The translations under genes and the position numbers were made by a program. Positions 848 through 48,426 of a stretch of DNA of 64,000 nt are shown piece by piece (the first letter of the stretch is position 1; every line of letters starts with the position of its first letter). The notes below the pieces were generated by a model that made no database searches, had not been told where the DNA came from, and saw only the letters and a list, made by a program, of their open reading frames with translations. The DNA comes from Bacilli bacterium (GTDB taxonomy: Bacteria > Bacillota_I > Bacilli_A > RFN20 > CAG-826). Where the stretch lies: positions 67,726 through 131,725 of the forward strand of contig JAZQVN010000035.1 in NCBI GenBank assembly GCA_045631885.1, given 5' to 3'.

Positions 848-1682
848 AATTTGGTAAGAATAATTCATATAAGAGCAAGCAGTGTTTCCAATTCATCTCT
901 GGTTGCTCGTTTTTAATTGTGTCATCTAATAAAGTGTATTGGAGAGAAATACCCGCTAAACGAGAAACATCAATGTTGGCTAAATCAAAACCAAAGAAGA
1001 TATATTTTTCTCCCGCGTTTGTCGGAATGTTATCAATTTGATATGAAACAGGAACTCTACGATAAGATTGATTATCGGTCTTACAGTAGAAGTTAATTTG
1101 TAATCTGATGCTAGACATATGTCCTGGGATATTCGTGGATTTACCATCTCTACGATAATCTAAAGAAGCTTTAAAGTTTAAAGCAAAGTAATCATATTCT
1201 TTTATTTCTTTACCGAACTTTGTGCCAAATCCATTTTCATCAATTTGCACTCTCGCTAATTCATATTTGCTGTGACAGAACATTTGTCCATTAAATAATT
1301 TAGATAAATAACCGTATTTGAACGAAGAATCGTTTTTTCCTAAAGCATATGTTTGGCCATAGCTCTTAATATCAGAATCACTTGGATCGTTTAAATCATA
1401 ATCATAAGAATATTTATTCTTGTCTGGTTGAACACGAACAAAATTATCATCGTTAAAAGAAGTGAAGACACTATCATTTTCTTTATCTAAAGAATAAACA
1501 GGTTGATCTTTGTTATCTTCTTCAACTTTAAATAAAGTTTCATCCCATTCAGAATAGAAGTTTTTATTATAGTCAACAGAAACATAGACATCGCCTTGAT
1601 AGATTTCTTTTAAACCATAGCCACATCCAGATAAAAGCATCGCTGGAATTAATAAGAGGAATTTATGCATTTTGAACTTCAT
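834..1682 (-). CDS. Lipoprotein, unknown function
   Basis: 282-aa ORF with signal peptide plus lipobox (LLIPAMLLSGC). Its start overlaps the stop of the upstream membrane gene (ATGCATAA-type overlap if Met5 is used). Confidence 0.6.
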   Translation of the reverse strand: MKFKMHKFLLLIPAMLLSGCGYGLKEIYQGDVYVSVDYNKNFYSEWDETLFKVEEDNKDQPVYSLDKENDSVFTSFNDDNFVRVQPDKNKYSYDYDLNDPSDSDIKSYGQTYALGKNDSSFKYGYLSKLFNGQMFCHSKYELARVQIDENGFGTKFGKEIKEYDYFALNFKASLDYRRDGKSTNIPGHMSSIRLQINFYCKTDNQSYRRVPVSYQIDNIPTNAGEKYIFFGFDLANIDVSRLAGISLQYTLLDDTIKNEQPEMNWKHCLLLYELFLPNSTWH

Positions 1683-7752: not shown

Positions 7753-8146
7753 TGGTGGAGCCGAGGAGAGTTGAACTCCTGTCCAGAGAAGGCTCTTCAA
7801 TAACGTCTACAGCTTAGACGGTATGAACTTTAACGTGTTTTGCATATCGACGGACTCTACACGCGAGACAAATTGTAACTTCATTAACGCCGTGTTAGTC
7901 TTCAAGCGTTAACTATCCTTTTGGTATGACACCACTACCAGGCGTGAAAGGCTAAAACCCTGGGTGATGCTGTGCCCGGCGCCTTGCGTCGGTCCCTAAC
8001 GTCGGGTGCTAATTAAGCAGCGCAGAGAACTTGAGCTCTAGGAGCTCTCATATAACTGTTGTCAGTTATTTTTGTTTTGGTTATCACGGTGACCAACCGG
8101 CTGCAGTTAGAGCCTAGCACATCCCTGTCGAAACCAGTACGACCCC
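7753..8146 (-). ncRNA. ssrA: tmRNA (transfer-messenger RNA)
   Basis: Minus-strand 5' end GGGGTCGTACTGGTTTCGACAGGG and 3' end GGACAGGAGTTCAACTCTCCTCGGCTCCACCA (T-arm plus acceptor plus CCA). An internal tag ORF ends ...GCT GCT TAA, with the stop in the loop of a TGCT/AGCA helix. Confidence 0.92.
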
Positions 8147-8280: not shown

Positions 8281-9327
8281 ATGAACCCAAAGGCTAAAAA
8301 ATTCTTATCAAATTTCTTCTTCGGACTATTCTCAAACGAACACGCGATTGAAGGTTCTAAATCCAATCCATGGTGGGTCGCCGCTATTATTGGTGTTTTA
8401 GGTTGTTTTATTCCAGTTATTCCATTAACTGTTAATACCGCTAATGCATATGGCAGTTCTTTCTTATCAAGCTATACATATCGTTATGATCAAAACATCT
8501 CTGATGTGACAACCAAAATGTTATTAGACAACAAGGAATTTAAAGTGAGTGATGAACACTTACTTCAATACTTTGACAATGGTGAAGTCGTTCACCCATC
8601 TGTCACTGAAGATGTCTATCCTGTTGCCTCTCATATTAATGCCTCTACAGGTCAATATGAATTAATGATTTATTTCACCGAAAGAGAAGGCGTTGATTTA
8701 GATGCTTTAAAAACATCCATCAATGACGCTCAATATAAGACTGGCACAACCGAAACCGCTGGTCCAAATGATGGTGCTTATGCTCCTTCATATGTTTTAC
8801 TCTTTAAAAACGGCATTTACACAAAATTGATGAAAGAGAATTCCGTTGAACAAGGTAATGGCACCGCGACAAACTACACAACCGACTGGAAACACTTTGA
8901 AGTCGGTCATGAATTATTAAAGAGCACATTACCAGAAGGCAAAGTCGCTTCTGATATCGACTTAAATAATTCTAACGATGTCAAAAAGATTTTTGAAAAC
9001 TGGAAAGAAGTCTATAACAAAGCTTATATCAGCCAAAAGACTTATAACATCTGGATGACAACATTACTCTTCTATGGAATCTACTTCGGTTTAACAATTC
9101 TCATGGGTTTATTAGTCTTCTTATTAACTCGTGGAAAGAACAATATGTTCAACTACTTGAAGTTCATCGATTGTCTCAAGATTGTCTGGTGGGCATGTTT
9201 ATCCCCAGCTATCCTTGGTATGATCTTCGGATTCATCTTTGCAAACTTCGCTCAAATGATGTTCATTATCTTAATTGGTTTAAGAGTCATGTGGATATCA
9301 ATGAAGCAATTAAGACCTCAATATTAA
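8281..9327 (+). CDS. Membrane protein, unknown function
   Basis: 348-aa ORF with an N-terminal TM segment, a large extracytoplasmic segment, and a C-terminal cluster of TM helices. Confidence 0.55.
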   Translation: MNPKAKKFLSNFFFGLFSNEHAIEGSKSNPWWVAAIIGVLGCFIPVIPLTVNTANAYGSSFLSSYTYRYDQNISDVTTKMLLDNKEFKVSDEHLLQYFDNGEVVHPSVTEDVYPVASHINASTGQYELMIYFTEREGVDLDALKTSINDAQYKTGTTETAGPNDGAYAPSYVLLFKNGIYTKLMKENSVEQGNGTATNYTTDWKHFEVGHELLKSTLPEGKVASDIDLNNSNDVKKIFENWKEVYNKAYISQKTYNIWMTTLLFYGIYFGLTILMGLLVFLLTRGKNNMFNYLKFIDCLKIVWWACLSPAILGMIFGFIFANFAQMMFIILIGLRVMWISMKQLRPQY

Positions 9328-31056: not shown

Positions 31057-31938
31057 ATGTACGAATACGCATTAATCATTTTATCAACAGTATTATTTGG
31101 TGGTCAGTTTATTGCCTTAAATGCCTACCAAGGGAAAAATGGCAAAAGCTTTCATAGCATTCTTTTCTTTTGTTCGGTGTTTAGTTTAACTGGCGCTTTA
31201 GTTTTCCTCGCGTTAAGTGGATTTCAAGTCTCCTTTTCTTGGTACACATTAATGTATGCCGCTATCGCCGCAGTTATACAAATTAGTTTACAGATTGTTG
31301 GCATCAAAGCTTTATCAATGGGGCGAGTTGAAATATATACATTATTCAATGTCGCAGGTGGTATGAGTGTTGCCTATATATTCGGTATCACTTACTTCCA
31401 AGAAGAGATTAAAGTCGCACATATTATCGGCATAGTCTTAGTTTTAATAGCTTTGCTAGTTCCAGTCATTTTTGATCGAAAATCCCAGCAAAAGTCCCGT
31501 ATTTTATTCTGGATTATGTGCATTTTTGTATTTCTTTCAAATGGATTTTTCGGTTCGATTAACAAAATACATATCGTCTCCGGAGAGGGATTATCCATCA
31601 AAGAATATATGTTTTATATGTATTCGTGCATCTTCATAATGAGTTCGATCTCGTTTGGTGTAATGGCATTATTTAAAAAGGACAGCACTAAGGTGTTATT
31701 CAATCCTTGGGCTCTCTTATTTGCTTTTATATATGGCCTAGTGAATAGCGTTGGTATGTTCTTACAATACTCATATGCGGACAAAGTCCCCGCTTCAATC
31801 TTATTCCCATTATCAAACGGGGGTTCGTTAGTTTTCGGTCTAATCATCGGTTGCATCGCTTACAAAAAGAAACCAACACTACCAGATATAATTCAAATAA
31901 TTATCGCTGTTGCGGGAATGGTTTTATTTATCATTTAA
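31057..31938 (+). CDS. DMT-superfamily (EamA-like) membrane transporter, tentative
   Basis: 293-aa ORF with 10 TM helices in a 5+5 arrangement, 3 nt after the previous gene. Confidence 0.4.
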   Translation: MYEYALIILSTVLFGGQFIALNAYQGKNGKSFHSILFFCSVFSLTGALVFLALSGFQVSFSWYTLMYAAIAAVIQISLQIVGIKALSMGRVEIYTLFNVAGGMSVAYIFGITYFQEEIKVAHIIGIVLVLIALLVPVIFDRKSQQKSRILFWIMCIFVFLSNGFFGSINKIHIVSGEGLSIKEYMFYMYSCIFIMSSISFGVMALFKKDSTKVLFNPWALLFAFIYGLVNSVGMFLQYSYADKVPASILFPLSNGGSLVFGLIIGCIAYKKKPTLPDIIQIIIAVAGMVLFII

Positions 31939-31963
31939 AAAACAGTCCTTAATGGTCATAGTT

Positions 31964-33742
31964 TTATTCAACCGTCACACTTTTGGCTAAGTTTCTTGGT
32001 TTATCAACGTTATATCCTTTTAACAAAGAAACGAAATACGCTAAATAGAAGGCGATTGACGATATGACAACGCTCGATAGATAAAAGGCATAATCATTCA
32101 CCACAATTGTGTCACCGGATTGAGAAAGGCTTTTTGTCACGATGGTATAAACTTTCGCACCTCTAGATTTAACCTCTTCAATGTTGCCTCTCATACTACT
32201 TGCTGTGTCTGGATCAGTAATGAAGACGATAACAGGAAGGTCTTGTTCAATTAATGCGATTGGTCCGTGTTTAAGTTCTCCACCCGGAATTGCTTCACTA
32301 TGGATATAACTAATTTCTTTTAATTTCAAAGAAGCTTCTAAAGAAAGGAAATAATCAAAACCTCGGCCCAAATAGAAGATGTTTTGTTTATCTTTGATAC
32401 CTTCAGCGACACGCATAATCGCTGGTTTATAATGGTCTTGAATATCGTAAATAATATCAATGGATTTATTTAGATCATTAATAAGTTGAGAGTCATTTTT
32501 TAAAGCCGCAGCTAGCATGGATAGCAAAGTAACTTGCGCAACGTATGCTTTTGTAGAAGCCACAGAAACTTCAATTCCACTATAGAGTAATAATGAGTAC
32601 ATTGAGTTCCTATCCAAAGTAGATCCGCCAGTGTTCGTGATAATTAAATTTTTTAAATTATTTTCCTTCACAATTCTTAAACAATGAATCAAGTCAGCGG
32701 TCTCACCGGATTGAGAAATCATGATAATAAATGGCTTTTTGCCAGGAAAAGTCGGATGAAAGGCCCATTCAGACGCAATAAAACGAGAGACAGATTTATC
32801 GTATTTTTCAAAATAACGACCACCAACCAAACCGGCGTGATAAGAAGTTCCACAAGCAATAAAAATAATGTGATCGGATTCTTCTAAATCTCGTATTAGA
32901 CGCGAGTCAAATTGATACTCCCCATTTTGATAATATGTGCTTATCAAACGTTTGACGGTTTGAGGGATCTCTTCAATTTCTTTAATCATATAGTGTGGGT
33001 AACCCTTTAAGTCATGAGAGATTAATTCCACATCTTTAGAAATGGTTTCTTTTTGAATCTCTTCGCCTGCAAGATTATAAAATGTCGCTTTGTCTTTAGT
33101 GATTACACCAAATTCCAAATCATCTAATTCAATGAAAGAATTGGTGTATTCAATCATAGGAGAGGCATCTGACGCAACCAAGTTAAAACCATCACCTAAA
33201 CCAATAACTAAAGGCGATGCATTTTTAATAACAAATAAAGAGTTCGCATCATCACTAGTAAAAAAAGCAAAAGCATAACTACCCTTCACTAACCTCATAA
33301 TCGTTTTAATAGATCCAATAATGTCACCTTTTTCAAGGTAATAGTATTCCAATAAATTTGCGATAATCTCAGTATCCGTTTCACCATAGAAACAATAGCT
33401 CTTTTCCGTGAGGAAATTTCTCAATTCTTTAAAATTCTCAATTACTCCGTTATGAACAAGACAAATCTTTCTATGGAATGATAAATGTGGGTGGGTATTT
33501 AGTTTTGTCGGAGCTCCATGTGTGGCCCATCTTGTATGACCAATCATAATATTGGTGATAATTTCTTTTGGGACTATGGTTAAAAGATGTTCAACACTTC
33601 CGACATCTTTATATATTTGAACACCATTATCAAAAAAAGCCACACCAGCAGAATCATAACCGCGATAATCAAGCATCTTTAATCCTTTAAAAACGTATTT
33701 TTTTGGGCTAATAAAGCCAATAGAGCCAACAATACCACACAT
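31964..33742 (-). CDS. glmS: Glutamine--fructose-6-phosphate aminotransferase
   Basis: MCGIVG N-terminal nucleophile, SIS-domain blocks (GTSYHAG, SQSGETAD), and C-terminal ...SVTVE. Confidence 0.95.
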   Translation of the reverse strand: MCGIVGSIGFISPKKYVFKGLKMLDYRGYDSAGVAFFDNGVQIYKDVGSVEHLLTIVPKEIITNIMIGHTRWATHGAPTKLNTHPHLSFHRKICLVHNGVIENFKELRNFLTEKSYCFYGETDTEIIANLLEYYYLEKGDIIGSIKTIMRLVKGSYAFAFFTSDDANSLFVIKNASPLVIGLGDGFNLVASDASPMIEYTNSFIELDDLEFGVITKDKATFYNLAGEEIQKETISKDVELISHDLKGYPHYMIKEIEEIPQTVKRLISTYYQNGEYQFDSRLIRDLEESDHIIFIACGTSYHAGLVGGRYFEKYDKSVSRFIASEWAFHPTFPGKKPFIIMISQSGETADLIHCLRIVKENNLKNLIITNTGGSTLDRNSMYSLLLYSGIEVSVASTKAYVAQVTLLSMLAAALKNDSQLINDLNKSIDIIYDIQDHYKPAIMRVAEGIKDKQNIFYLGRGFDYFLSLEASLKLKEISYIHSEAIPGGELKHGPIALIEQDLPVIVFITDPDTASSMRGNIEEVKSRGAKVYTIVTKSLSQSGDTIVVNDYAFYLSSVVISSIAFYLAYFVSLLKGYNVDKPRNLAKSVTVE

Positions 33743-33767
33743 TTAACAATGTCCTCCTATATTTATT

Positions 33768-36335
33768 CTAGAAAATTTCTTTTCGTACAATAGTTTGATT
33801 TTTATCTGGGCCAACTGAAACCATAACTACAGGTACACCCACTTCTTTTTCGATGAATTCGACAAATTTTTTCACATTAACTGGAAGTTCATCATATGTT
33901 TTAACATTACTAATATCTTCACTCCATCCATTTAACTCAGAATAAATTGGTTTACATTCTCTTAACACTGCGTCAGAAGCAGGCAAAGTATTAATTAAGT
34001 GGCCTTTATAATTATAATGAGTACAAACCGCCACTTTTTTAAAACCGGTTAAAACATCCATAAGTGTTAAACAAATATAAGAAATGGAATTAATCTGAAC
34101 TGAATATTTCAAAGCGGGTAAATCCAAAAAGCCAATTCTTCTTGGACGGTGAGTAACTGTACCATATTCATGGCCCTTTTCCCTAATTAAATCACCAATA
34201 TCATTAATTTGTTCGGTTGGGAAAGCCCCTTCCCCCACTCTTGTTTCATAAACTTTAACAACACCCAATATGTCATCAACACCATGACAGCCAATACCGG
34301 TTCCATCAACTGTACCTCCAGAAGTAACGTTTGAAGAAGTAACATATGGATAACTACCAAAATCGACATCCAACAAAGCCCCTTGAGCCCCTTCAAATAA
34401 GATGTTCTTTTTGGCCTTTCTCGCTTCGCCTATCATATAAACGGTATCCGCTACCATCGGGCGAATATAATTAGCGAGTTCAATATATTCTTTAACAGTT
34501 TTATCATAGTCAATTGGATTACCACCCATATCGACGATTTGTTTATTTTTTATCATTAACAAATTTTTATAAAGAGCCGGGAAATCTTCGCTAACAAAAT
34601 CTACCATCCTCATACCAACGCGGCTTATTTTATCTGCATAAGCAGGGCCAATTCCACGTTTAGTAGTGCCGATTCTCTTATCTCCAAGAGCGGCTTCGTT
34701 TAGACGATCTAATTCAATATGGTGGTCGAATAAAACATGCGCTCTATCTGAGACATATATGTTTTTCGCGGAAAATCCCATAGATTTGATTTCTTCCACC
34801 TCTTCTTTAAATGCTCTTGGGTTGATAACCATCCCATTAGCGAGTATGCATTTCACATTTTCATTAAATACACCTGAAGGAATTAATCTTAATGCGTATT
34901 TACGGCCACCAAAAACAATCGTGTGACCGGCATTATTACCACCTTGATATCTAATTACAACATCGGCTTTTTCAGAAAGGAAGTTAGTGATTTTGCCCTT
35001 ACCTTCATCACCCCATTGGGAACCTAAAACAAGTAATGATTTTCCAGGTTTCAATCTCTTATAGATATTATCTATATTCTTAAGATAATAATCTTCATCA
35101 AAACATTCAATAATCTCTTCTTTGTTCAACACCTTGTTAATATGTTCATCTTCAAGTAATAAGTTTTTAAACGGTTGTTTTTCATTTAATGTTTTAAAGG
35201 CAATTGATTGAACTAAATCATAAGCTTCTTCTCTAGACATCCCTTTGTTAATGAGTTTATTTAAAACACCACCAGAATAAGTGATTCCATAATTTAGAAG
35301 AATGTTTTCATTCATTTTTTCAGTATTAACCACTAGGTCTTTACAAATTTGTGTAAATCTTTTAAGCATGTAGTCTAGAAGAGTGCAAGCATCAGGGATA
35401 ATAATACGTTCAGCAGAACTATGAGAAATATCTCTTTCATGCCACAAATTGTTATCTTCTAAAGCCACATCGACATAACTTCTCATAATGCGAGCGCAAC
35501 CACAAATATTTTCAGAACCAATAGGATTCTTTTTGTGTGGCATTGCGCTACTACCTTTTTGTCCTTTTAAAAATAGTTCTTGGACTTCACTAATTTCACT
35601 ACGAGATAGGTGCCTAATTTCAGTTGCCATCTTTTCTAAACAAGAAGCGATTTGTGCTAAGGAAAAAATATAGCCAGCATGTCTATCTCGAGAAAGAACT
35701 TGTGTTGATATTCTCGCAAAATTCATACCTAATTTGTTAGCGACATATTCTTCCACTTCCATCGGAATGTTTGCGTAGTTACCAACAGCGCCAGAAAGTT
35801 TAATTACTTCAACGTTATTTCTTTCATTTAAAAATCTTTCTCGACATCTATTTAATTCATCAAACCAAAGAGCCCATTTAAGACCAAATGAGGTGATTTC
35901 TGCATGCATTCCATGGGTTCTCCCTATGATTGGTTGGTGTTTATACTTTTCCGCCATTACTTTGGTGACAGAAATTAAATTATCCAAATCGTCTAAAAGA
36001 AGATTGTTAGCGTATTTCAAAGTTAAAGACTGGGCACTGTCAACAACATCAGTAGATGTAAGTGAATAATGAAACCATTTTTTCTCTTCGCCTAATTGAT
36101 GCGAAATAGAACGAGTAAAAGCAATAACGTCGTGTTTAGTAACCGCTTCTATTTCTTCAATGCTTTTTAAATCAACATGTGCTTTTTTAACGATAGCTTT
36201 GTAATCTTGTTCGGGCACAATGCCTAATTTAAAATACGCTTCAATAACTGTTTCTTCAATTATGAGGTAGTTATTAAATCTATTTTTATCAGAAAAAATC
36301 TCTTCAAATTCTTTATGGGAATACCTTTTAATCAT
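33768..36335 (-). CDS. purB/purA: Fused adenylosuccinate lyase (N-terminal) / adenylosuccinate synthetase (C-terminal)
   Basis: A single 855-aa frame. Residues 1 to about 428 carry PurB features (SLTSTD, GSSAMPHKKNP). From about residue 433, SLLVLGSQWGDEGKGKITNFL, GGNNAGHT and GTTKRGIGP mark PurA. The junction ...IYKRL-KPGK-SLLVLG has no stop and no ATG. Confidence 0.85.
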   Translation of the reverse strand: MIKRYSHKEFEEIFSDKNRFNNYLIIEETVIEAYFKLGIVPEQDYKAIVKKAHVDLKSIEEIEAVTKHDVIAFTRSISHQLGEEKKWFHYSLTSTDVVDSAQSLTLKYANNLLLDDLDNLISVTKVMAEKYKHQPIIGRTHGMHAEITSFGLKWALWFDELNRCRERFLNERNNVEVIKLSGAVGNYANIPMEVEEYVANKLGMNFARISTQVLSRDRHAGYIFSLAQIASCLEKMATEIRHLSRSEISEVQELFLKGQKGSSAMPHKKNPIGSENICGCARIMRSYVDVALEDNNLWHERDISHSSAERIIIPDACTLLDYMLKRFTQICKDLVVNTEKMNENILLNYGITYSGGVLNKLINKGMSREEAYDLVQSIAFKTLNEKQPFKNLLLEDEHINKVLNKEEIIECFDEDYYLKNIDNIYKRLKPGKSLLVLGSQWGDEGKGKITNFLSEKADVVIRYQGGNNAGHTIVFGGRKYALRLIPSGVFNENVKCILANGMVINPRAFKEEVEEIKSMGFSAKNIYVSDRAHVLFDHHIELDRLNEAALGDKRIGTTKRGIGPAYADKISRVGMRMVDFVSEDFPALYKNLLMIKNKQIVDMGGNPIDYDKTVKEYIELANYIRPMVADTVYMIGEARKAKKNILFEGAQGALLDVDFGSYPYVTSSNVTSGGTVDGTGIGCHGVDDILGVVKVYETRVGEGAFPTEQINDIGDLIREKGHEYGTVTHRPRRIGFLDLPALKYSVQINSISYICLTLMDVLTGFKKVAVCTHYNYKGHLINTLPASDAVLRECKPIYSELNGWSEDISNVKTYDELPVNVKKFVEFIEKEVGVPVVMVSVGPDKNQTIVRKEIF

Positions 36336-36354
36336 AAGTCCGATTTACTTCTTA

Positions 36355-38448
36355 TTAATGCTCGCTAAATAATAGTTCTTCGTATGTTGGCATTGGCCAA
36401 TAATGTTTTGGCATCAATGTTTCACATTCATCAACAACTTTTCTTAACTCCGCCATTAATGGTAATAATTTATCTTTGATAAAGAACGCTTGTTTTTCAA
36501 CGTCTTCAATCTTAGTAGCATCTTCGTATTTTGTTTCTAAACTTTCCACATCAACGCTAATTTTGGTCAAGTTTCCAGTGAGTTTATTAAGAATGGAAAT
36601 TTGATAATCAGTTGAAATATCTTTGCCAATAGCTTTGATTTCATTAACATTTTTCGCTAATTTGCCAATATATTTGTTAATTGCTGGCAAGATGTCTCTT
36701 TTCGCCATACGAATCATTGTTCTTGCTTCGATTTCCAAAGTCTTAACATAATTTTCAAAATCTATTTCTTGTCTGGCTTTTAATTCTTCTAGGCCTAAAA
36801 CTTTTTCTTCTGCGAATAATTTGACATTCTTTTCGTCAATGAGATGCACTAGTGCATCTGGAGTGGTTGGATAATTACATAAACCACGTTTCTCCGCTTC
36901 TAAAACCCAAGCATCGTTATAGCCGTTACCAGAGAATAAAATACGTTCATGCTTTTCAACTGTCTCTTTAACTAAATCGTGAATAGCTTTATCTAAATTA
37001 TCAGCGCTTTCTAAAACATCAGCGAACTCTTTTAAAGAATTAGCCACCGCTGTATTAAGGACCATATTTGCATCACTAACCGCTTTATTAGATCCTGGCA
37101 TTCTAAATTCAAATTTATTGCCGGTATAGGCAAAAGGAGATGTTCTATTTCTATCGGTATTGTCTTTATGAATACTTGGTAAGACATCACTGCCTAACAA
37201 AATCTTTTCCTTATGAGATTCATAAGTCATTTCATCATTAACAATAGCTTTTAAAACTTTTGTCAATTCATCGCCTAAGAAAATTGAAATAATAGCTGGT
37301 GGGGCTTCATTCTTGCCTAAACGATGATCGTTAGAAGCTGAAGCAACGCTTATTCTAAGTAAGTCTTGATATTCATCAACCGCTTTAATGACTGCTGCTA
37401 AAAACAGCAAGAATATTCTATTTTCAAACGGAGTATCACCTGGGTGTAATAGGTTGATACCAGTGTCAGTAGAAATAGACCAGTTATTATGCTTACCACT
37501 ACCATTCACACCATCAAATGGTTTTTCGTGGAACAAAACAACAAAGCGATGTTTGTCAGCTATCTTTGTCATAATTTCCATCACGAGTTGGTTTTGGTCG
37601 CATGCCAAATTACATGTTGTATAAATATTAGCTAATTCATGTTGAGAAGGCGCCACTTCATTATGCTCCGTTTTAGCGGCGATTCCTAATTTCCAAAGTT
37701 CTTTATCAAGTTCTTCCATAAAAGCACTGACTCTTGGCTTAATAACACCAAAATAATGGTCGTCCAATTCTTGACCTTTAGGTGATGGGGCTCCATACAA
37801 AGTTCTGCCAGTGAGAATCAAATCTAATCTTTTTTCAAACAATGCTTTATCGACAAGGAAATATTCTTGTTCGGGACCAACATTAGTAACAATATGTTTG
37901 ATGTCATTCATTTTTAAAGCTTTAAATACTCTTAATGCTTGTTTGTTCAAAGCATCAATACTTCTTAGTAAGGGTGTCTTCTTATCAAGAGCGTATCCAC
38001 CATAAGAACAAAATGCTGTTGGAATGCACAAAGTGCGACCTTTGATAAAAGCATAACTTGTCGGATCCCAAGCGGTGTAGCCTCTTGCTTCAAATGTGCT
38101 TCTTAATCCGCCAGAAGGGAAGGAAGAAGCATCAGGTTCTCCTTTAATAAGTTCTTTCCCTGATAATTCTAATACGGGGTTACCGGATTCAACCTCGCTC
38201 AAAAAACTTTCGTGCTTTTCAGCGGTAATACCTGTTAATGGTTGGAACCAGTGAGTATAATGGGTCGCCCCGTTTGCAATAGCCCAATCTTTCATCGCTT
38301 CTGCGATTTTAGTGGCTAAAGATGAGTCAAGCGATTCACCGTTTTTAATTGTCTGTTCTAATTTTTCAAAAACATCTTTGCTCAATGCGTTGCGCATCGC
38401 ATTTTCATTGAACACTAGTTTTCCGAATTCTTCTGGAACTATTTTCAT
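36355..38448 (-). CDS. glnN: Glutamine synthetase, type III
   Basis: 697 aa. N-terminal ...DWAIANGATHYTHWFQPLTG and the central catalytic blocks are typical of GSIII rather than GSI. Confidence 0.85.
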   Translation of the reverse strand: MKIVPEEFGKLVFNENAMRNALSKDVFEKLEQTIKNGESLDSSLATKIAEAMKDWAIANGATHYTHWFQPLTGITAEKHESFLSEVESGNPVLELSGKELIKGEPDASSFPSGGLRSTFEARGYTAWDPTSYAFIKGRTLCIPTAFCSYGGYALDKKTPLLRSIDALNKQALRVFKALKMNDIKHIVTNVGPEQEYFLVDKALFEKRLDLILTGRTLYGAPSPKGQELDDHYFGVIKPRVSAFMEELDKELWKLGIAAKTEHNEVAPSQHELANIYTTCNLACDQNQLVMEIMTKIADKHRFVVLFHEKPFDGVNGSGKHNNWSISTDTGINLLHPGDTPFENRIFLLFLAAVIKAVDEYQDLLRISVASASNDHRLGKNEAPPAIISIFLGDELTKVLKAIVNDEMTYESHKEKILLGSDVLPSIHKDNTDRNRTSPFAYTGNKFEFRMPGSNKAVSDANMVLNTAVANSLKEFADVLESADNLDKAIHDLVKETVEKHERILFSGNGYNDAWVLEAEKRGLCNYPTTPDALVHLIDEKNVKLFAEEKVLGLEELKARQEIDFENYVKTLEIEARTMIRMAKRDILPAINKYIGKLAKNVNEIKAIGKDISTDYQISILNKLTGNLTKISVDVESLETKYEDATKIEDVEKQAFFIKDKLLPLMAELRKVVDECETLMPKHYWPMPTYEELLFSEH

Positions 38449-38485
38449 TTTATTTTTCTCCTATTCAATTCAAATTTTTAAGTGA

Positions 38486-38737
38486 TTATTTCGGTCTTTG
38501 TAATCTAATAAAATGTTGTCGGAACACCAAAACTTCATTTATGTTCAATTCACTCTTTCTGTAAGTGATTTTTGGACCAATAGAGAGAACAATACCTACT
38601 GGATTCTTGCTTCGGATGAAAGTCGTCGGATAGGCCGAAAGCAATACCTCGCAATAGGCATTATTCTCTCTTATTCTCTTAGAAATCATTTCACGAGATA
38701 GAACATCAAAATCAGTAAAAAACATTTGGTTTTGCAT
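38486..38737 (-). CDS. Hypothetical 83-aa protein between pyrG and glnN
   Basis: The ATG lies 2 nt after the pyrG stop, with AGAAGG 9 nt upstream. The sequence is non-repetitive and looks beta-rich. No family recognised. Confidence 0.4.
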   Translation of the reverse strand: MQNQMFFTDFDVLSREMISKRIRENNAYCEVLLSAYPTTFIRSKNPVGIVLSIGPKITYRKSELNINEVLVFRQHFIRLQRPK

Positions 38738-38739
38738 AC

Positions 38740-40341
38740 TTATTTGCCTTCTTTTCTGTTTAACGATGAAACGATTAAACCCGTGAATAAAGGGTGTGGA
38801 TTTGTTGGTCTAGATTTAAATTCTGGGTGAAACTGTGAACCAATATAAAATGTATTAGTGGGACATTCCACTATTTCTACGAGTGATTTGTTCGGAGATA
38901 AACCACTGAGTTTCAAACCGTTATCAATGAAGTCTTGACGATAAATATTGTTAAATTCATATCTATGTCTATGACGTTCGTTAATCATATCTTTTTGATA
39001 TAAACTTTTTGCTAAAGAATTATCTTGTAATGAGCACGGGTAGCTACCGAGTCTCATTGTCGCTCCTTTAGTAACGATATTGACTTGTTCGGGCATCAAA
39101 GCAATCACAGGGTAAGCAGTGTTTTCATCAAATTCGCTACTATTTGCATCTTCAAAACCTAAAACATTCCTCGCGTATTCAATAACCATCACTTGCATAC
39201 CTAAGCAAATGCCTAAACAAGGGACATTATTCTCTCGAGCATATTTTACAGATTCGATCATACCCTCGATTCCACGTGTTCCGAATCCACCTGGAACAAT
39301 TATTCCATCCGCTTCTTTTAATATTTCATCAGCACCATTTTTCGTAATCTTCTCAGAATCAACCCAAAGAATTTCCGCTTTTGCATCTAAGCTTGAAGCG
39401 GCGTGGAAAATAGATTCTTCAACGCTTAAATAAGCATCGTGTAGTTGTGTATATTTTCCCACAAGAGCAATCTTAACTTGTTTATGAGCGCCTTTGATTT
39501 TATCAACCATTGCTGTCCACTTTTCTAAATCCGGTTTAGTAATTGGTAAATGAAGTTTTTCGCAAACTATATCAGTCAAGCCTTCATGTTCTAATAGAAG
39601 TGGCACTTCGTATATGCTCGAAGCGGTTAAATTCTCAATAATTGCTCTTTTATCTATGTCGCAAAGTAAAGCTATTTTATCTTTAATATCCTGTGTAAGT
39701 GCTTGTGTGCTTCGACAAACCAAAACATCTGGCTGAATGCCTAGAGAATTCAGTTCTCTCACACTATGTTGGACAGGTTTGCTTTTAAGTTCGCCACTAC
39801 CAGGTATTTCCACAATAAGCGGAACATGAATGTAAATAACATTTTCTCTTCCCTTATCCTGGCCAACTTGTCGGATGGCTTCTAAAAAAGGTAGAGATTC
39901 AATATCACCAACCGTGCCACCAATTTCACATATTGCGATATCAATGTTTTGTTTTTCGGAGATGTAAATCCATCTTTTGATTTCATCAATAACATCTGGG
40001 ATAATTTGAACTGTCCTTCCTAAATATCCGCCTGTTCTTTCTCTATTGATAACATTCCAATAGACTTTTCCAGAAGATATTGAACACGATGCATCTAAAG
40101 GAACATTAGTAAACCTTTCATAATGTCCTAAATCTAAATCCGTTTCCGCACCATCGTCAGTGACAAAAACTTCACCATGTTGAAAAGGCGACATAGTGCC
40201 TGGATCAACATTTAAATAAGGATCAAATTTTTGATTCTTAACAGAATAACCTCTTTGTTTTAATAAACGAGCTAGAGAAGCGGCGCAAATACCCTTTCCT
40301 AATCCAGATACAACCCCACCAGTAACAAATATATATTTCAT
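38740..40341 (-). CDS. pyrG: CTP synthase
   Basis: [17 protein letters not shown], and a GATase domain with GICLGMQ and HRHRYE. Confidence 0.96.
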
Positions 40342-40470
40342 AATTCATTAACCAATCATGGGGTTATACTATCATAGAGACTAGTCAACAATAAAATACC
40401 TATAATATTATGACTATCATATTTTTTTCATATGTTAAGTTCTCTTTACTATATATCAAAAAGAAAAGCT

Positions 40471-41655
40471 TTATTTTTTATAAAAATCGTATAGTTCTTT
40501 GAATGCTGGAAGGGAGTTTACAATTTGTTTATAACTTACGCAATAAGCAATTCGAACATACCCTTTATAACTAAATGGATTGCTTGGAACAAGTAATAAT
40601 TCAAATTTTTTAGCAACTTCAGAAAATGCTTCAGCATCATCCTCTAATGCTTTCATAAACAAATAGAAGGCACCCGTTGGATAAATAACATCATAGCCAA
40701 TTTCTTTTAAAGCGTTATAGAGAGTATCCCTATTCTTTTTATATTCATTTAAATCAGATGTATAGCCAAGCACATACGGGATTAAATGTTGAAATATCGC
40801 AGGAGCGCATATATAACCAAGCATTGATGCAGCGCCGCAAATAACCGCGTAAACATCTTCGACATCTTTGCATTTTGAATTAACTAAAACGTATCCAATT
40901 CTTTCTCCTGGAATAGATAAACATTTAGAGAATGAATAGCACACTATTGAATCGCTATAATAATTAGTCACAAAAGGATATTTTTCATCGCCATATAAAA
41001 GATCTCTATATGGTTCATCACTCACGAGATAAATGGGGTGTCCATACTCTTTTTCTTTCAAAGAAAGAATATTGGAGAGTTTTTTAATTGTATTTTCATC
41101 ATAAAACGCCCCTGTTGGATTGTTTGGAGAGTCGTATATTATCAGCTTTGTTTTGTTGGTGATTTTACGTTCTAAATCAATAAAGTCTGGTAAGAAATCT
41201 TTATCGGGATTAACAGGCACTAGAATTCCTTCTACCGCTTCCGTGTACGTTCGATATTCTGGAAAATGAGGCGCAAAAACAATTACTTCTTCTTTCGGAG
41301 CCACTAACGCTTTTGTAACTATCGCTAACGATGCGGCTGCACCACAAGTCAAAAAGATATATTTTCCAACTATATCAGTACTATATGTCTTATTCAAATA
41401 GGCGGCGATGCTATCTCTTACTTCTATCTCACCAGGAGAAACTGTATAACCATGAATTTTTACAGAATTCTCTTCTTTTAACAATTTGAAAAGAGTTTCG
41501 TTAACAATAGCTGGAGCAGGGATAGAGGGATTACCAATACTAAAATCATAAACGTTATCTTCCCCTATTATTTTCTTTCTAGCTATACCATAAGTGTATA
41601 AGTCTCTAATTGTTGATTGACTCTTGCCAATATTTAACATTTTCTCATCAAACAT
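40471..41655 (-). CDS. Class I/II PLP-dependent aminotransferase (aspartate/alanine-type)
   Basis: Contains NPSIPAP, SPNNPTG, and YSFSKCLSIPGERIGY (PLP lysine). Confidence 0.8.
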   Translation of the reverse strand: MFDEKMLNIGKSQSTIRDLYTYGIARKKIIGEDNVYDFSIGNPSIPAPAIVNETLFKLLKEENSVKIHGYTVSPGEIEVRDSIAAYLNKTYSTDIVGKYIFLTCGAAASLAIVTKALVAPKEEVIVFAPHFPEYRTYTEAVEGILVPVNPDKDFLPDFIDLERKITNKTKLIIYDSPNNPTGAFYDENTIKKLSNILSLKEKEYGHPIYLVSDEPYRDLLYGDEKYPFVTNYYSDSIVCYSFSKCLSIPGERIGYVLVNSKCKDVEDVYAVICGAASMLGYICAPAIFQHLIPYVLGYTSDLNEYKKNRDTLYNALKEIGYDVIYPTGAFYLFMKALEDDAEAFSEVAKKFELLLVPSNPFSYKGYVRIAYCVSYKQIVNSLPAFKELYDFYKK

Positions 41656-42726: not shown

Positions 42727-45459
42727 TTATTTAACAATAGTAGGATTTACTAAGGTAATAATTCCATCTTTAAATTGAATTGTCGCGGTGAAATTAACAA
42801 TTGGAACAATACCATCAGTTTCTCCTTCCATAACATAAGAAGAATAATCCTCTGCTAAATGGCTAAAGCCATAATATGTAGGTTCCCAGTTATGATCCAT
42901 AATGATGACGAAACCTTTACCATTGGTGAATAAAACTGTTTTATAAGAATAGATGCCTGTTTGTGAATCGAATGTCAAATCATTTCCGGTTGAAGCATCC
43001 CAACCATTAAATTCACCAACTAGAGAATAGGTGTGATCTTGAACGTAGCCACCTTCTCCAGAGTCACCACCTCCATGAATAGTAAAATGGAGCATATTTA
43101 CGCCGTTATTATTGATGATGGTAATTCTGAAATCGACATCCTTAACCACTCTAATATTATTGTCGCTAGCTTGAACTAAATATTCGCCACAAACATCTTC
43201 AGGGTTCAATATATCGCTATAGCCAAGTTTGCCAGCTTGTTCTCCGCGATTATATCCAATTACATAGAATAAATCGTTTGCGAATAATCCGTGGTCGATA
43301 TATAAACGACCCTCAGTGTCTGTACCAAATGGGAATTCAGGATTACCCTTGATAAATAGTTCAGCCCCGTCAAAACCTTGAACAGGAATATCCGATGTGA
43401 AATAAACTATTCTTATTGAATACTCTCCAATATTCTCATAATTAATACAGTATCTAACATCTTCTTGATCAAAATAATATTTATATTGATTATCTATGTC
43501 TTCATTTTCTTTCCAACCATTACTCTCTAACTTGGCTTTGAAAGCATCAAAAACTTGACTGCTTACTCCGAAATAATCAAAGAAGTCTGATTGTTCACCT
43601 GGATGATTAAACACCAAGCCTTCTGGAAGCAATATATCTTGATTAAGTACAGAGAATATCGCTTTATCAGCGTTTGAATATGAGCAATAGAAATCTTTAG
43701 TTTCTTGAATCTTTAAATAGCTTCCATCAAAACCGATTTTAAACACCTTATTTCTTGCTGTATCAGTGATCGCATAAGTTGGGTTTTTCTCAATTACTGG
43801 GTAGTCCATTTTTAAAAGTTTTTGTATATAGCTTTGTCTATCTTGTTCTTCAATACCGTTTAAATAGATAGAACAGCTAAGCGGATCAGCACTTTGAGAA
43901 GTTACTTCAACACTAGCGACGAATAGTTTAGAAGAGATAGATGGTACTAATCTTTCTAATCCCATTTCTTTCAAAGTTTCAAATGGCCAACCGATGACTG
44001 AATCGCTATATGGATTACAATTAATTCTTAAAATCTTATAATCTAAGATTTCTCCATCGGCCACCAAATTAACCTGAATTAGTAAAAGTGGTTGATGATA
44101 TGTATTAACGATTTCAACAACTGAATCGGTTGTTTTCACCAATATTGAGGTTCCAGAATCTAATAAAACATTAAGTTGTAAGTCTTCTATAGAAGCTTCT
44201 CCAATTAATTCTTGTTTATTATCTAAAGCAAGAATTTTTGGAATAAATGGGGATTCGTAGTGATATGAATCTTGATTATTAATCAAATTGGAGAAACTAA
44301 CTTTATCTGTTCCTAAATAGCATTCGTCACCTTCAGTCATTTCTCTTTCTCCACGATAATCCACGACTTTTAAGGACGCCGGTTTTCTTTCGTGTCCCCC
44401 TTCATCTTCGTCGCGAGTGACTAAAGAATAAATAACGTCTTTACCAAATATATTCGAGAACTCAGAGTACATTGTTTGGATAACATTGTTTTTGTTTCCT
44501 TGTTTATTAAAGAAAGGAGCCTTATCTATATCGGTAGCGTTAAGACCTAATTCATAAAATAAATGAGCGACTCTTTCTCTTCTATCAGTGTTTCTATTTA
44601 AATCTTTAGCTTTATAAAGTGCACTATTCTTATACCAAGAAAAAGATCCGACTTCATAAGAAACGCCATCATTAATGTAACTAGCAAATGTTTGATGTTC
44701 ATTATCTTTCACCAATGGAATATGAGCTTCTAAATCAAATTTTCTCCATTCCTTAATTTGGTTCTCTTGAACATCTACATAGTCATATTCATAGACGCAA
44801 CGATCATAATAAGGAATACCTGTTTCGTCGTTGTTAGTTAACATAGTTAAAATGTATGTTGGGTTTTCCTTATCCATGTTATAGTCAAGTTCCATAAACA
44901 CATACCAATCCGTTTGATAAGTATCAGTATCTTTACTTAAAGAAATTGAGAAAGAAACATCTGCGGTAATTAAATCGTTTGCGTCAATATTAATCGCTAA
45001 ACCTAAAGTGAAGGAATAGTCATATTCAAATTGAGATTTATGTTCACCTTCAAAACCAGTTTCAGAGTCAATATAAACTTTGCCAGTAACTGTATCGTAA
45101 TATTTAGTATCAAAAGAGTAATTACTACCGATTTTATCGAATGCATATTTGAGACATTGGAATTGAATCATTGGTGGTTGAGTATAACTCAAATCATCAA
45201 TCACATCACCTTGATTATCTTCTGATGAAAAAATAGAAAACAGGGAATCAAGTGTCGAACTAGCCGCTGCGCGAGAGAGTTTCTTATTTAATTGTTTGGC
45301 ATTATTACTTGAAACATTTCTAAAGCTGCTTTCCACTCCAGAAAAAGCGGTTTTGACCTTTTCATATGGCGTTGTAGGCGGTACGTATTTGTTATGTGTT
45401 CCGCACCCTGTTAATAACGATATGGCTAAAAAAGTACCGAATAATCCTAGCTTTTTCAT
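42727..45459 (-). CDS. Large surface lipoprotein with a C-terminal CBM48/E-set-like module
   Basis: MKKLGLFGTFLAISLLTGC lipobox (start at Met9 of the listed ORF). The last ~100 aa contain YSLVGEFNGWD...MDHNW, reminiscent of glycogen/starch-binding E-set domains. Confidence 0.6.
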   Translation of the reverse strand: MKKLGLFGTFLAISLLTGCGTHNKYVPPTTPYEKVKTAFSGVESSFRNVSSNNAKQLNKKLSRAAASSTLDSLFSIFSSEDNQGDVIDDLSYTQPPMIQFQCLKYAFDKIGSNYSFDTKYYDTVTGKVYIDSETGFEGEHKSQFEYDYSFTLGLAINIDANDLITADVSFSISLSKDTDTYQTDWYVFMELDYNMDKENPTYILTMLTNNDETGIPYYDRCVYEYDYVDVQENQIKEWRKFDLEAHIPLVKDNEHQTFASYINDGVSYEVGSFSWYKNSALYKAKDLNRNTDRRERVAHLFYELGLNATDIDKAPFFNKQGNKNNVIQTMYSEFSNIFGKDVIYSLVTRDEDEGGHERKPASLKVVDYRGEREMTEGDECYLGTDKVSFSNLINNQDSYHYESPFIPKILALDNKQELIGEASIEDLQLNVLLDSGTSILVKTTDSVVEIVNTYHQPLLLIQVNLVADGEILDYKILRINCNPYSDSVIGWPFETLKEMGLERLVPSISSKLFVASVEVTSQSADPLSCSIYLNGIEEQDRQSYIQKLLKMDYPVIEKNPTYAITDTARNKVFKIGFDGSYLKIQETKDFYCSYSNADKAIFSVLNQDILLPEGLVFNHPGEQSDFFDYFGVSSQVFDAFKAKLESNGWKENEDIDNQYKYYFDQEDVRYCINYENIGEYSIRIVYFTSDIPVQGFDGAELFIKGNPEFPFGTDTEGRLYIDHGLFANDLFYVIGYNRGEQAGKLGYSDILNPEDVCGEYLVQASDNNIRVVKDVDFRITIINNNGVNMLHFTIHGGGDSGEGGYVQDHTYSLVGEFNGWDASTGNDLTFDSQTGIYSYKTVLFTNGKGFVIIMDHNWEPTYYGFSHLAEDYSSYVMEGETDGIVPIVNFTATIQFKDGIITLVNPTIVK

Positions 45460-45531
45460 AAGTAAATCTCCTTGTATTATCACTATATACTAAAAAGGAT
45501 ATCAAAGCCAATTTATTGTATACTGAAATTA

Positions 45532-46196: not shown

Positions 46197-47168
46197 TTAT
46201 ATAATCTCCCAATACCCGAATCTTTTGCCGTTAATTCTTTTAATCTTGTTTTCTTTACTCAAAAGAGCTATGACGCTATCAATAGTTCGTGGCGAAACAC
46301 CAATTCTACTTGCCAATTCATCAATACTGATTCTCGGATTAGCTTTGATTAATTCTAAAACGCGTGTTTCCCTTGGGGTGGTTTCATTATCATTAGAGTC
46401 AATACTTATACGCAAGTCTCTATTTCTTAATATGTTATGTTCATTAAGAAGTAAATTTCTTAAAAACATAATAATGTATTTTTTATCATCATATATGCCT
46501 TTACGGATGAACTTGAAATTAGCCCTCACCAAGGCGTTTCTAAAAAACCAGGCATTTTTAGCAAAAACATCATTTGTTACATCATATCCTAGCGATCTTA
46601 GATATTTGATAAAAAATACCGCAGTGGTACGAGTATTTCCTTCCTGAAACGCGTGAATTTGCCAGAGATTAGAAACAAAAGTTGCTAAATGTTCAATGAC
46701 TTTATCCTCGGACAAATCAGCATATTTAAAATTTCTTTCAGTCTCAAAATCATACTCTAGAGTGTTCCTGAGTTCATGATAATCGCCATAAATGACAGAT
46801 CTACCATCAAGAACCCACTCTTTTTTTATGAAGTTATAATCTCTTAATTTTCCAGCATGGTTGAATACGCCTTCAAATAGTTGCTTATGAATGCTAACCA
46901 GTTGTCCAACTGTAAATGTAAAAGAATCGTCAGAAATAATTTGCGCAATCCTATTTGACACAATGTCTGCCTCTTCTGTTCTTGCATCTTCGTTAGGTTT
47001 ATTTTCATAATAAGAACTAATTATTTTATCTAGCTCATCTAAAGATATTTCTCCTTTGACATATCTATCAGCTTGCGATAAAAAATATGTCGAATTCTTA
47101 AGTCCGTCAACATCTTGAAGGCCAATTCCAGTTTCAATTAAATATTTGTTCGAATACTTATTTTCCAT
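46197..47168 (-). CDS. Fic/DOC family protein with a C-terminal winged-helix domain
   Basis: Fic motif variant HAFQEGNTRTTA (canonical HxFx[DE]GNGRxxR) at residues 172-183. The C-terminus TRVLELIKANPRISIDELASRIGVSPRTIDSVIALL looks like a wHTH. Confidence 0.8.
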   Translation of the reverse strand: MENKYSNKYLIETGIGLQDVDGLKNSTYFLSQADRYVKGEISLDELDKIISSYYENKPNEDARTEEADIVSNRIAQIISDDSFTFTVGQLVSIHKQLFEGVFNHAGKLRDYNFIKKEWVLDGRSVIYGDYHELRNTLEYDFETERNFKYADLSEDKVIEHLATFVSNLWQIHAFQEGNTRTTAVFFIKYLRSLGYDVTNDVFAKNAWFFRNALVRANFKFIRKGIYDDKKYIIMFLRNLLLNEHNILRNRDLRISIDSNDNETTPRETRVLELIKANPRISIDELASRIGVSPRTIDSVIALLSKENKIKRINGKRFGYWEII

Positions 47169-47263
47169 AGGAAAATATTATCACATTCAACTTCAAAACG
47201 CAACTCCAAAACGCAATTTAAGTATTTTTGCGCTTTGAAATTATTCACACAAACTCAAACATC

Positions 47264-47289
47264 AAAAAAGTCGCCGCTATGGACGACTT
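47264..47289 (-). repeat. Degenerate third copy of the rpsR-type terminator hairpin (orphan)
   Basis: AAAAAAGTCGCCGCTATGGACGACTT is close to the 45653 and 49548 copies. No minus-strand gene ends immediately upstream of it. Confidence 0.6.
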
Positions 47290-47404
47290 AATTTTCATTG
47301 ATTTAGCCCGATCTACGAGCCCTTACCATTCGCTTTCGACTAATGCCCTGTTGAGGAAGCTACAATTTGAACAACTTAGGCAAATCGCAACTATCCAACA
47401 ACAG

Positions 47405-47496
47405 TTGTCCCAGGACGACGACCGTTCTCCGTTTTAAGACAGATCCGACTCTCCGACGACGGTCTCCATATTTGTTCCACACGACTCAGAATCGAC
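47405..47496 (+). repeat. ~92-nt islet repeat, copy 2
   Basis: TTGTCCCAGGACGACGAC...GACTCTCCGACGACGGTCTCCAT...AGAATCGAC. Confidence 0.8.
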
Positions 47497-47574
47497 GGCG
47501 GCTGGTATTTCGTTAGCTACGACGACGAACGCGCGACGTGGGTCGACCGGGATAGCCTAAAACGAGTCCGATGA
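47494..47574 (+). pseudogene. G+C-rich coding-looking remnant
   Basis: The open frame reads DGGWYFVSYDDERATWVDRDSLKRVR*. There is no start codon or RBS, and its composition is unlike the host genes. Confidence 0.25.
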
Positions 47575-47703
47575 CGATGGATTTATATTAATATAAATAG
47601 TTCAATAAAAGGCACATTATATTGTTTTTTTTATTCATAAAAATACAAAAACTTTTTCATTTGTGGCATGCTTCATAATAATATATAGGCAGGAGGAGCC
47701 AGT

Positions 47704-48426
47704 GTGACCACGATAAAAGAAATTAATGTTGGTAAAATTGATCCATCCATTAAAGGAGTCTTAGAGAAGTTAGTTACTATCAAAGGCTTAGACTTTTATG
47801 TGATTGGTGGTCTTCTATGTCAGTACTACTTAAAAGACCACGCTAGATATACAAAAGACGTTGATATCATTTTCAACGATGAACAAGAAGTCGTGGAAAG
47901 AGAATTAAAGAAAGCATTCGGCGATATTCATTTGTTCTATGCTGAAGATACAGAGAATTTCTATGGTGGCACTTTTACTTGCTTTACCAGAGTTAATGAG
48001 TTATTAGGGCAAATAGAAGGAAAGAAGATTAAATTCTTAAAAGATGTTAAGGGCAAACAATATTCTTATGAAGGCATTAACTTTAGAGGTGTTGATATTG
48101 AATATTGTATCGCTGAAAAGGTTGTCACTTTGTTAAATGAATTATGTAGACCATACAAACATTTAGTGGACCTCTATTCCTTTACTCAAATCGATCAATC
48201 ATTAATCGATAAGAAAGAAATAAAGAGATACATGCTACTAATAAACGCTCATGAGAATGTATATAGAAAAGCACATAATCTTAAGGAATATGAACTTCCT
48301 AAAGAAATTAAGGAAGATAAAGAGTTAAAACCACCAATAGTGGTCCCAACACTACAAAGTAAATATAACGTTTCTAGAGAAGTAATGAAATCTAGTGTGA
48401 ATGAGTGGTTGAAAACCATTATCTAA
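47704..48426 (+). CDS. AbiEii/AbiGii-like nucleotidyltransferase (DUF1814-type toxin family)
   Basis: GTG start with AGGAGG 7 nt upstream. NTase signature VIGGLLCQYYLKDHARYTKDVDIIF (GG-x15-DxD). The 240-aa size fits the family. Confidence 0.65.
   Translation: MTTIKEINVGKIDPSIKGVLEKLVTIKGLDFYVIGGLLCQYYLKDHARYTKDVDIIFNDEQEVVERELKKAFGDIHLFYAEDTENFYGGTFTCFTRVNELLGQIEGKKIKFLKDVKGKQYSYEGINFRGVDIEYCIAEKVVTLLNELCRPYKHLVDLYSFTQIDQSLIDKKEIKRYMLLINAHENVYRKAHNLKEYELPKEIKEDKELKPPIVVPTLQSKYNVSREVMKSSVNEWLKTII

Follow-up and report, generated by a model that had tools for sequence, protein, structure and literature searches.

The 64-kb window analyzed here (64,000 nucleotides (nt), positions 67,726 to 131,725 of contig JAZQVN010000035.1 from an uncultured rumen Bacilli bacterium) carries, on its minus strand at 33768..36335, a single open reading frame (ORF) in which adenylosuccinate lyase (PurB) is joined in frame to adenylosuccinate synthetase (PurA). 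The ORF, here called purBA, starts with ATG, ends with a TAG stop at 33768..33770 and encodes a protein of 855 amino acids (aa), estimated at ~96 kDa; an open frame of 855 codons at ~33-37% G+C is far beyond chance. Pfam, NCBIfam and an AlphaFold2 (AF2) model agree on its two-part makeup. The PurB module, delimited by TIGR00928, by alignment with B. subtilis PurB (1F1O) and by Foldseek, takes up residues 1-428 (35052..36335, minus strand). The PurA module, delimited by NF002223, by alignment with E. coli PurA (1ADE) and by Foldseek, takes up residues 431-855 (33771..35045, minus strand). Between them lie two junction codons, AAA CCT (K429-P430; 35046..35051, minus strand), recognized by comparison with unfused relatives. 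An earlier note, made from the DNA letters alone and silent on the strand, had described a complete PurB and a complete PurA in one 855-aa frame, and the ORF list, Pfam and NCBIfam bear this out.

In the fusion protein, Pfam placed Lyase_1 at residues 10-281, ADSL_C at residues 350-427, and Adenylsucc_synt at residues 436-849 (model positions 2-416 of 416). The NCBIfam purB model TIGR00928 matched residues 1-428 at 476.3 bits against a cutoff of 326.2 (model positions 1-435 of 436), and the purA model NF002223 matched residues 432-854 at 554.9 bits against a cutoff of 402 (model positions 2-427 of 430). A second PurA model, TIGR00184, scored 525.9 bits against a cutoff of 395.6. Because these equivalog models are matched end to end, both PurB and PurA are full length. 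The motif GSSAMPHKKNP, quoted in the earlier note, is present, and QWGDEGKGK was found likewise. An alternative genetic code of the Mollicutes type, with TGA read as Trp, is not needed, as the ORF is intact under table 11 and TGA is a stop codon in a relative (L012).

On the coding strand the junction reads aat atc tat aag aga ttg AAA CCT gga aaa tca tta ctt gtt tta ggt, which translates as ...NIYKRL-KP-GKSLLVLGSQWGDEGKGK; the junction-spanning peptide of the fused chain contains YKRLKPGKSLLVLGSQWGD. K429-P430 is the sole stretch without homology to either stand-alone enzyme. Direct reading of the junction DNA revealed neither a stop codon nor an ATG, nor anything like a GGAGG Shine-Dalgarno sequence, just as had been claimed; the lone start-type codon is an in-frame TTG (Leu428), which has no Shine-Dalgarno sequence ahead of it. 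The K429-P430 codons fall within the location given earlier for the junction, 35041..35060, and the modules are joined by two residues. In the AF2 monomer model, which was built on 78 sequences and had a mean predicted local distance difference test score (pLDDT) of 89.9 and a predicted template-modelling score (pTM) of 0.77, the last PurB helix (residues 421-427) leads through coil (428-432) into the first PurA strand (433-438), and pLDDT at the junction is 86-88.

Two genes may be falsely joined by an assembly or sequencing artefact, or by a recent pseudogene-like lesion. Three equally close relatives (L004, L005 and L006) carry separate genes just 2 nt apart, so that a small error could mimic a fusion, and some database proteins in which PurA precedes PurB (P0054, P0058 and P0079) resemble frameshift artefacts. 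The difference between the window junction and the unfused junction is, however, a net loss of 8 nt plus substitutions rather than a homopolymer slip. Further, the stretch is found in bovine-gut and rumen metagenomes of many studies, and when contigs of four independent metagenome runs were compared with the window over 33700..36400, the junction was crossed with zero indels anywhere and with zero substitutions between 35021 and 35172. Junction-crossing examples are X1 record 1 (33701-36400), X3 record 18 (33994-35104) and X5 record 26 (34300-35106). One metagenome contig of 4.8 kb spans the whole gene with 27 substitutions and zero gaps. Among the four RNA runs compared, a rumen metatranscriptome contig (X26 record 12) covers 34846-35128, across the junction, with one mismatch; other metatranscriptome contigs run across the 19-nt spacer into the glutamine synthetase gene upstream, although DNA carry-over in such libraries is possible.

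The fusion is also shared by diverged homologues. Among 5.8 billion proteins, clustered at 90% identity, the fused homologues fell into three groups, all with the three Pfam domains. The first comprises 36 clusters that are 79-88% identical to the window protein, all of 855 or 856 aa; the second comprises 9 clusters at 54-58% identity, of 856-863 aa; and the third consists of more distant fusions (P0050, P0051, P0053 and P0086). Among fused orthologues the ratio of nonsynonymous to synonymous substitution rates (dN/dS, Nei-Gojobori) was 0.05-0.10 for PurB as well as for PurA, dS being 1-2 and synonymous sites near saturation, which points to strong purifying selection on both halves. Given diverged fused orthologues together with low dN/dS, the fusion is a real, long-maintained gene. 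The contigs of the four DNA and four RNA runs and the homologue survey rule out a lost-stop artefact. With ~45 diverged clusters sharing the fusion, dN/dS of ~0.07 in both halves and synonymous sites near saturation, we regard an artefact or recent lesion as vanishingly improbable. The earlier note had proposed a check of the junction in independent assemblies and a true in-frame fusion rather than a lost stop codon. The four DNA runs and the metatranscriptome contig supplied that check without an indel, and the independent contigs, the diverged fused homologues and the purifying selection agree with a true fusion. In sum, the analysis shows a real fusion whose junction appears to be transcribed and whose two modules are complete and conserved, and an ancestral arrangement of separate genes.

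The ancestral arrangement was traced by a scan of GTDB species representatives, which yielded 31 loci; the halves were mapped by tblastn and the junctions were read. A survey of relatives had been suggested earlier, and both fused and separate alleles were found. The genes are fused in a single ORF in L001 (a metagenome-assembled genome (MAG) from yak omasum), L002 and L003 (ruminal_MAG_378), and are separate, at 81-87% identity, in L004 (ruminal_MAG_191), L005 (RUG14382) and L006. In the latter three the junction is ...AGA CTA GGT ATT TAA tt ATG GGT AAA TCA, that is, the purB stop codon TAA, 2 nt, and the purA start codon ATG, so that PurB ends in ...KRLGI* and PurA starts with MGKSLLVLG. Compared with this unfused junction, the junction is shorter by 8 nt in the window and by 5 nt in the 856-aa variants. 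Since the two frames are offset by 2 in the unfused state, a loss of either 8 or 5 nt restores the register. Representatives of the clade at 57% identity (L009, L010 and L012) have separate genes in the order purB then purA, overlapping or nearly touching, and more distant Izemoplasma-, Mariniplasma- and Acholeplasma-like genomes have separate adjacent genes in the opposite order, purA then purB. In one further locus, L007 (6001..7076, from a reindeer MAG), purB is split across two frames near codon 52, by a frameshift or an assembly error.

A neighbour-joining tree was built from concatenated PurB and PurA with the junction columns removed (200 bootstraps). The unfused L006 was basal to the window clade in 198 of 200 replicates, and the unfused L010 was the sister of the fused clade at 56% identity. 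The unfused L004 and L005 were nested among fused sequences, the path to them being supported at 95-98%. A single origin of the fusion in the window clade was rejected, as none of the 200 replicates recovered the fused sequences as monophyletic. The tree implies at least two fusion events, one of them in the window clade and the other in the 56% clade. The junction variants among fused alleles were RL-KP, RM-RP, RLLKP, RVFKK, and RLFSM with the ancestral ATG kept. Only over ~180 nt around the junction does L004 resemble the basal L006 more than its sister L003 (0.85 vs 0.73 identity). Within the window clade, then, the tree would be accounted for either by repeated fusion, by fission, or by short gene conversion. 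As fused and unfused alleles alternate among close relatives, any selective advantage of the fusion is probably small.

The residues kept in the two modules bear on whether both are active. The PurB half aligns with residues 1-428 of B. subtilis PurB (1F1O) without a gap and keeps H68, H89, H141, S262/S263, K268, N270 and E275 in that alignment. Its signature loop GSSAMPHKKN (residues 261-270) fits the pattern G-S-x2-M-x2-K-x-N. In the PurA half, G431 of the fusion aligns to G1 of mature E. coli PurA (1ADE), and D13, K16, N38, H41, T129, K140, R143, Q224, R303, R305 and D333 (E. coli numbering) are all kept. Two PurA motifs are conserved relative to 1ADE, the P-loop QWGDEGKGK and GIGPxYxDKxxR, which carries R143. 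The PurB residues listed, known from the B. subtilis and T. maritima literature, and the PurA residues have catalytic or substrate-binding roles. In Foldseek comparisons, the PurB half gave a target-normalised template-modelling (TM) score of 0.97 to T. maritima PurB (1c3c) and 0.95-0.97 across PurB structures, and the PurA half gave 0.93 to 4m9d. No PDB chain covering both halves was found by Foldseek (query-normalised TM <= 0.49) or by PDB sequence search.

One module might nonetheless have turned non-catalytic, serving a regulatory or scaffolding role and leaving the protein effectively monofunctional. The PurA aspartate loop deviates slightly, being GTVTHRPRR rather than the E. coli GATTGRRRR, and E. 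coli K331 is replaced by Leu in the window PurA. That lysine is, however, also missing from this position in B. anthracis PurA, and the key residues are all kept, namely H68, H89, H141, S262, S263, K268 and E275 in PurB and D13, K16, H41, R143, Q224, R303, R305 and D333 in PurA. With both halves well above their equivalog cutoffs and equally low in dN/dS, and with no second purA or purB seen within the 64-kb window, we consider loss of one activity highly unlikely.

It might also be asked if PurA, although the fused ORF is translated, is also or mainly made separately, either because translation starts anew near the junction or because the chain is cut by a protease; the working enzymes would then be the usual separate PurB tetramer and PurA dimer. 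The in-frame TTG at the junction (Leu428) would offer a start codon, L036 retains the ancestral ATG in frame, and in the NCBI records of the 56%-identity clade PurA is given a start at an internal Met or Val (P0121 and P0122). The TTG, however, lacks a Shine-Dalgarno-like sequence before it, and a TTG, ATG or GTG is not conserved across the fused alleles: L001 has ATG, L003 has TTA CTT, L037 has GTA TTT, and the GTG of L003 is GTT in the window. Cleavage is countered by the shortness of the junction peptide, which is modelled as an ordered turn, and we know of no protease site there. Separate production of PurA seems very unlikely.

The locus is therefore very probably a genuine, expressed gene for a bifunctional enzyme of the adenosine monophosphate (AMP) branch, derived from tightly packed purB and purA genes. 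Judged from sequence, the architecture is genuine, probably bifunctional and uncharacterised, and both activities would reside in one polypeptide. The C-terminal PurA would convert inosine monophosphate (IMP), aspartate and guanosine triphosphate (GTP) to adenylosuccinate. The N-terminal PurB would then split adenylosuccinate into AMP and fumarate, and would also cleave succinylaminoimidazolecarboxamide ribotide (SAICAR) if a de novo purine pathway is present; the order of the modules in the chain is thus the reverse of the pathway order. As for origin, a packed purB-purA pair (TAA, 2 nt, ATG) would have undergone a small net deletion (8 nt in the window lineage, 5 nt in that of the 856-aa variants), in which stop and start codons were lost and the frames joined, so that only ~2-5 flexible residues separate the final helix of PurB from the initial strand of PurA.

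PurB is a homotetramer in which each active site is built from three subunits, and it acts on both adenylosuccinate and SAICAR. PurA, which makes adenylosuccinate in a GTP-dependent reaction, is a homodimer in which R143 is supplied by the partner subunit. Because PurB needs a tetramer and PurA a dimer, the fused chain must satisfy both symmetries. The simplest assembly would have a PurB tetramer as the core, with the PurA modules paired as dimers at its two ends. The likely benefit would be that the two enzymes are made in a fixed 1:1 ratio and kept close together, perhaps with adenylosuccinate handed over locally; channelling is possible. Several points weigh against a bifunctional enzyme that profits from its fusion. 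The near-zero linker must suit both the PurB tetramer and the PurA dimer, and the purBA start is preceded by a weak Shine-Dalgarno sequence. The nesting of L004 and L005 within the fused clade suggests that the fusion is dispensable, which argues against a strong channelling advantage. Finally, NCBI nr represents the 56% clade solely as PurA from an internal Met or Val, so that a fused product was not adopted by the annotators, although this is an annotation choice and not data.

A bolder proposal, which we hold to be unlikely, is that the near-linkerless junction fixes the PurB tetramer and the PurA dimers in one super-assembly that hands adenylosuccinate directly from the PurA site to the PurB site, and that the order PurB then PurA is a structural rule. 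The assembly would take one of two forms, a closed (PurBA)4 particle whose ends are each capped by a PurA dimer, or an open polymer whose neighbouring tetramers are linked through PurA dimers. If the proposal is true, only the PurB C-terminus and the PurA N-terminus would be geometrically compatible, explaining the recurrent order. The single chain, with essentially no linker, offers a ready-made system to ask if the IMP-to-AMP branch gains from proximity or channelling, with a natural matched control in sister species that are 86-87% identical and have split genes. It is also a test case for whether oligomer symmetry, tetramer plus dimer, dictates fusion order, and, with fused and split alleles interleaved in one genus-level clade, an example from which to learn how readily genes that are tightly packed and translationally coupled become fused or separate again.

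The order PurB then PurA recurs elsewhere. Among the best 150 matches in 1.84 billion representative proteins (50% identity), five were fused (P0020, P0151, P0157, P0198 and P0202), and the rest were stand-alone PurA or PurB. The other fused lineages, P0050/P0051/P0053, P0086, P0151/P0157 and P0198/P0202, all have PurB followed by PurA; with P0039-P0047 included, identities to the window protein were 30-58%. By these comparisons a PurB-then-PurA fusion is present in at least four other distant lineages. The pairwise identity between distant fused lineages is 28-49%. In P0151, P0157, P0198 and P0202 the C-terminal domain of PurB is of the E. coli type, ASL_C (PF08328), in place of ADSL_C; P0086 is a distant third fusion, with a divergent, longer PurB half that has ADSL_C; and P0198 has an additional C-terminal HAD domain. 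Thus the distant fusions share with the window protein the module order and the completeness of both domains, but four of them have ASL_C and their linkers are longer, at 16 to ~85 residues between Pfam domain ends versus essentially none in the window clade. Among the fused proteins surveyed no clean PurA-then-PurB fusion was found, all clean ones being PurB then PurA; the candidates P0054, P0058 and P0079 were set aside, as their PurA domains are truncated and linked by junk connecting sequence. Other candidate fusions seen in the survey were metagenome proteins with PurB and PurK/ATP-grasp, PurS, GMP synthase, or SAICAR synthetase (P0061, P0077, P0082, P0088, P0108 and P0110), and P0205, in which a HisZ-like tRNA-synt_His domain is joined to PurA.

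Textbooks treat PurA and PurB as stand-alone enzymes, and both are drug targets. Relative to stand-alone PurB of the Bacillus/Thermotoga type (TIGR00928; 1F1O, 2X75, 2PFM and 1C3C), the window module has the same catalytic residues and fumarate-lyase signature loop, but it lacks the last ~3 residues and the stop of the 431-aa 1F1O protein and runs straight into PurA. Relative to stand-alone PurA (TIGR00184/NF002223; 1ADE and 4M0G/4M9D), the same whole mature enzyme is present from G1, but without its own initiator Met, and its first beta-strand begins 5 residues past the last PurB helix. The separate pairs of L004, L005 and L006 lie in the same neighbourhood (aminotransferase, pyrG, guaA, glutamine synthetase type III (GS-III), purB, purA, glmS) and their proteins are 81-87% identical, but they have a TAA, a 2-nt spacer and an ATG where the window is 8 nt shorter. 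Full-text literature searches, including searches for COG pairs and channelling, found no description of a published PurB-PurA or ADSL-ADSS fusion, and a comprehensive 2024 review of the purine pathway gives PurA/ADSS as monofunctional (PMC10912719); both are consistent with the remark in the earlier note that no characterised PurB-PurA fusion was known. Eukaryotic GART, PAICS and ATIC/PurH place consecutive or related purine steps on one polypeptide (PMC10912719). The window protein shares this principle, but the steps combined in those enzymes are different ones.

In public MAG and metagenome data the fused sequences are unnamed or called just 'adenylosuccinate lyase', and none has a descriptive fusion name. 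P0121 and P0122 (MCI6508145.1 and MDY4052719.1), named 'adenylosuccinate synthase', are exact C-terminal sub-sequences of the 856-aa fused P0042; their first residue is either an internal Met that lies 20 residues within PurB or a Val of the first PurA strand. Public annotation thus seems to mask the fusion. Because these NCBI entries mention no product but PurA, begun internally, metabolic reconstructions for these rumen Bacilli may overlook purB.

In the window, purBA is part of a co-oriented run of nitrogen- and nucleotide-metabolism genes at 31964..41655 (minus strand), in the order aminotransferase, pyrG, (guaA remnant), GS-III, purBA and glmS. The GS-III gene (36355..38448, minus strand; Pfam GSIII_N, Gln-synt_C and Gln-synt_C-ter) lies upstream of purBA across the 19-nt spacer. 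Downstream is glmS, for glutamine-fructose-6-phosphate aminotransferase (31964..33742, minus strand), after a 25-nt spacer that holds an AGGAGG Shine-Dalgarno sequence. Further upstream are the CTP synthase gene pyrG (38740..40341, minus strand) and a class I/II aminotransferase gene (40471..41655, minus strand). The cluster arrangement is kept in fused and unfused relatives alike: synteny with GS-III is conserved in L001-L005, L007 and L036, and the aminotransferase-pyrG arrangement in L001-L005; in one relative glutamate dehydrogenase comes next. The interval 38449..38739 is a remnant of the GMP synthase gene guaA, of which ~180 nt from the 5' end (38574-38754, 73% identity) and 33 nt from the interior (38510-38542) are left. 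A full guaA (~515 aa) lies between pyrG and GS-III in L001, L003 and L004. As the window keeps only fragments where these relatives have the full gene, guaA has been deleted at the window locus.

Other fusions vary in their surroundings. That of P0053 lies in a purE-glnA-guaA-guaB-purBA cluster, that of P0086 is 3.6 kb from a GS-III gene, and that of P0045 (56% clade) is alone in a spore-former-like context. Independent PurB-PurA fusions are also found near glutamine synthetase genes, glnA in L032 and L033 and GS-III in L034. A fragment of a group II intron reverse transcriptase/maturase (L032, 1..350) lies upstream of the P0053 cluster. No other pur genes are present in the 64-kb window; a link between the fusion and loss of de novo purine synthesis was considered and does not hold generally, as the P0053 fusion adjoins purE, guaA and guaB. 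A scan for promoters and terminators over 31500..39200 gave 15 promoter-like sites against a mean of 30 in shuffled sequence, with nothing convincing at the junction. An Rfam gathering-threshold scan of the whole window for riboswitches and RNA leaders gave only transfer-messenger RNA (tmRNA), whose gene lies at 7753..8146 (minus strand; RF00023, 119.9 bits).

The rest of the window is typical of a Firmicute chromosome, with pth-mfd-tilS-ftsH-dus-lysS, dnaB, gdpP, htpG and tmRNA. Four large ORFs had no Pfam match at E <= 1e-3 to 1e-5: 42727..45483 (minus strand, 918 aa), 1663..3144 (minus strand, 493 aa), 834..1682 (minus strand, 282 aa) and 8281..9327 (plus strand, 348 aa). A gene for a Fic/DOC protein with a helix-turn-helix domain (46197..47168, minus strand) and one for an AbiEii-like nucleotidyltransferase toxin (47704..48426, plus strand) make up the stretch 46197..48426, which may be a small defence or toxin-antitoxin islet.

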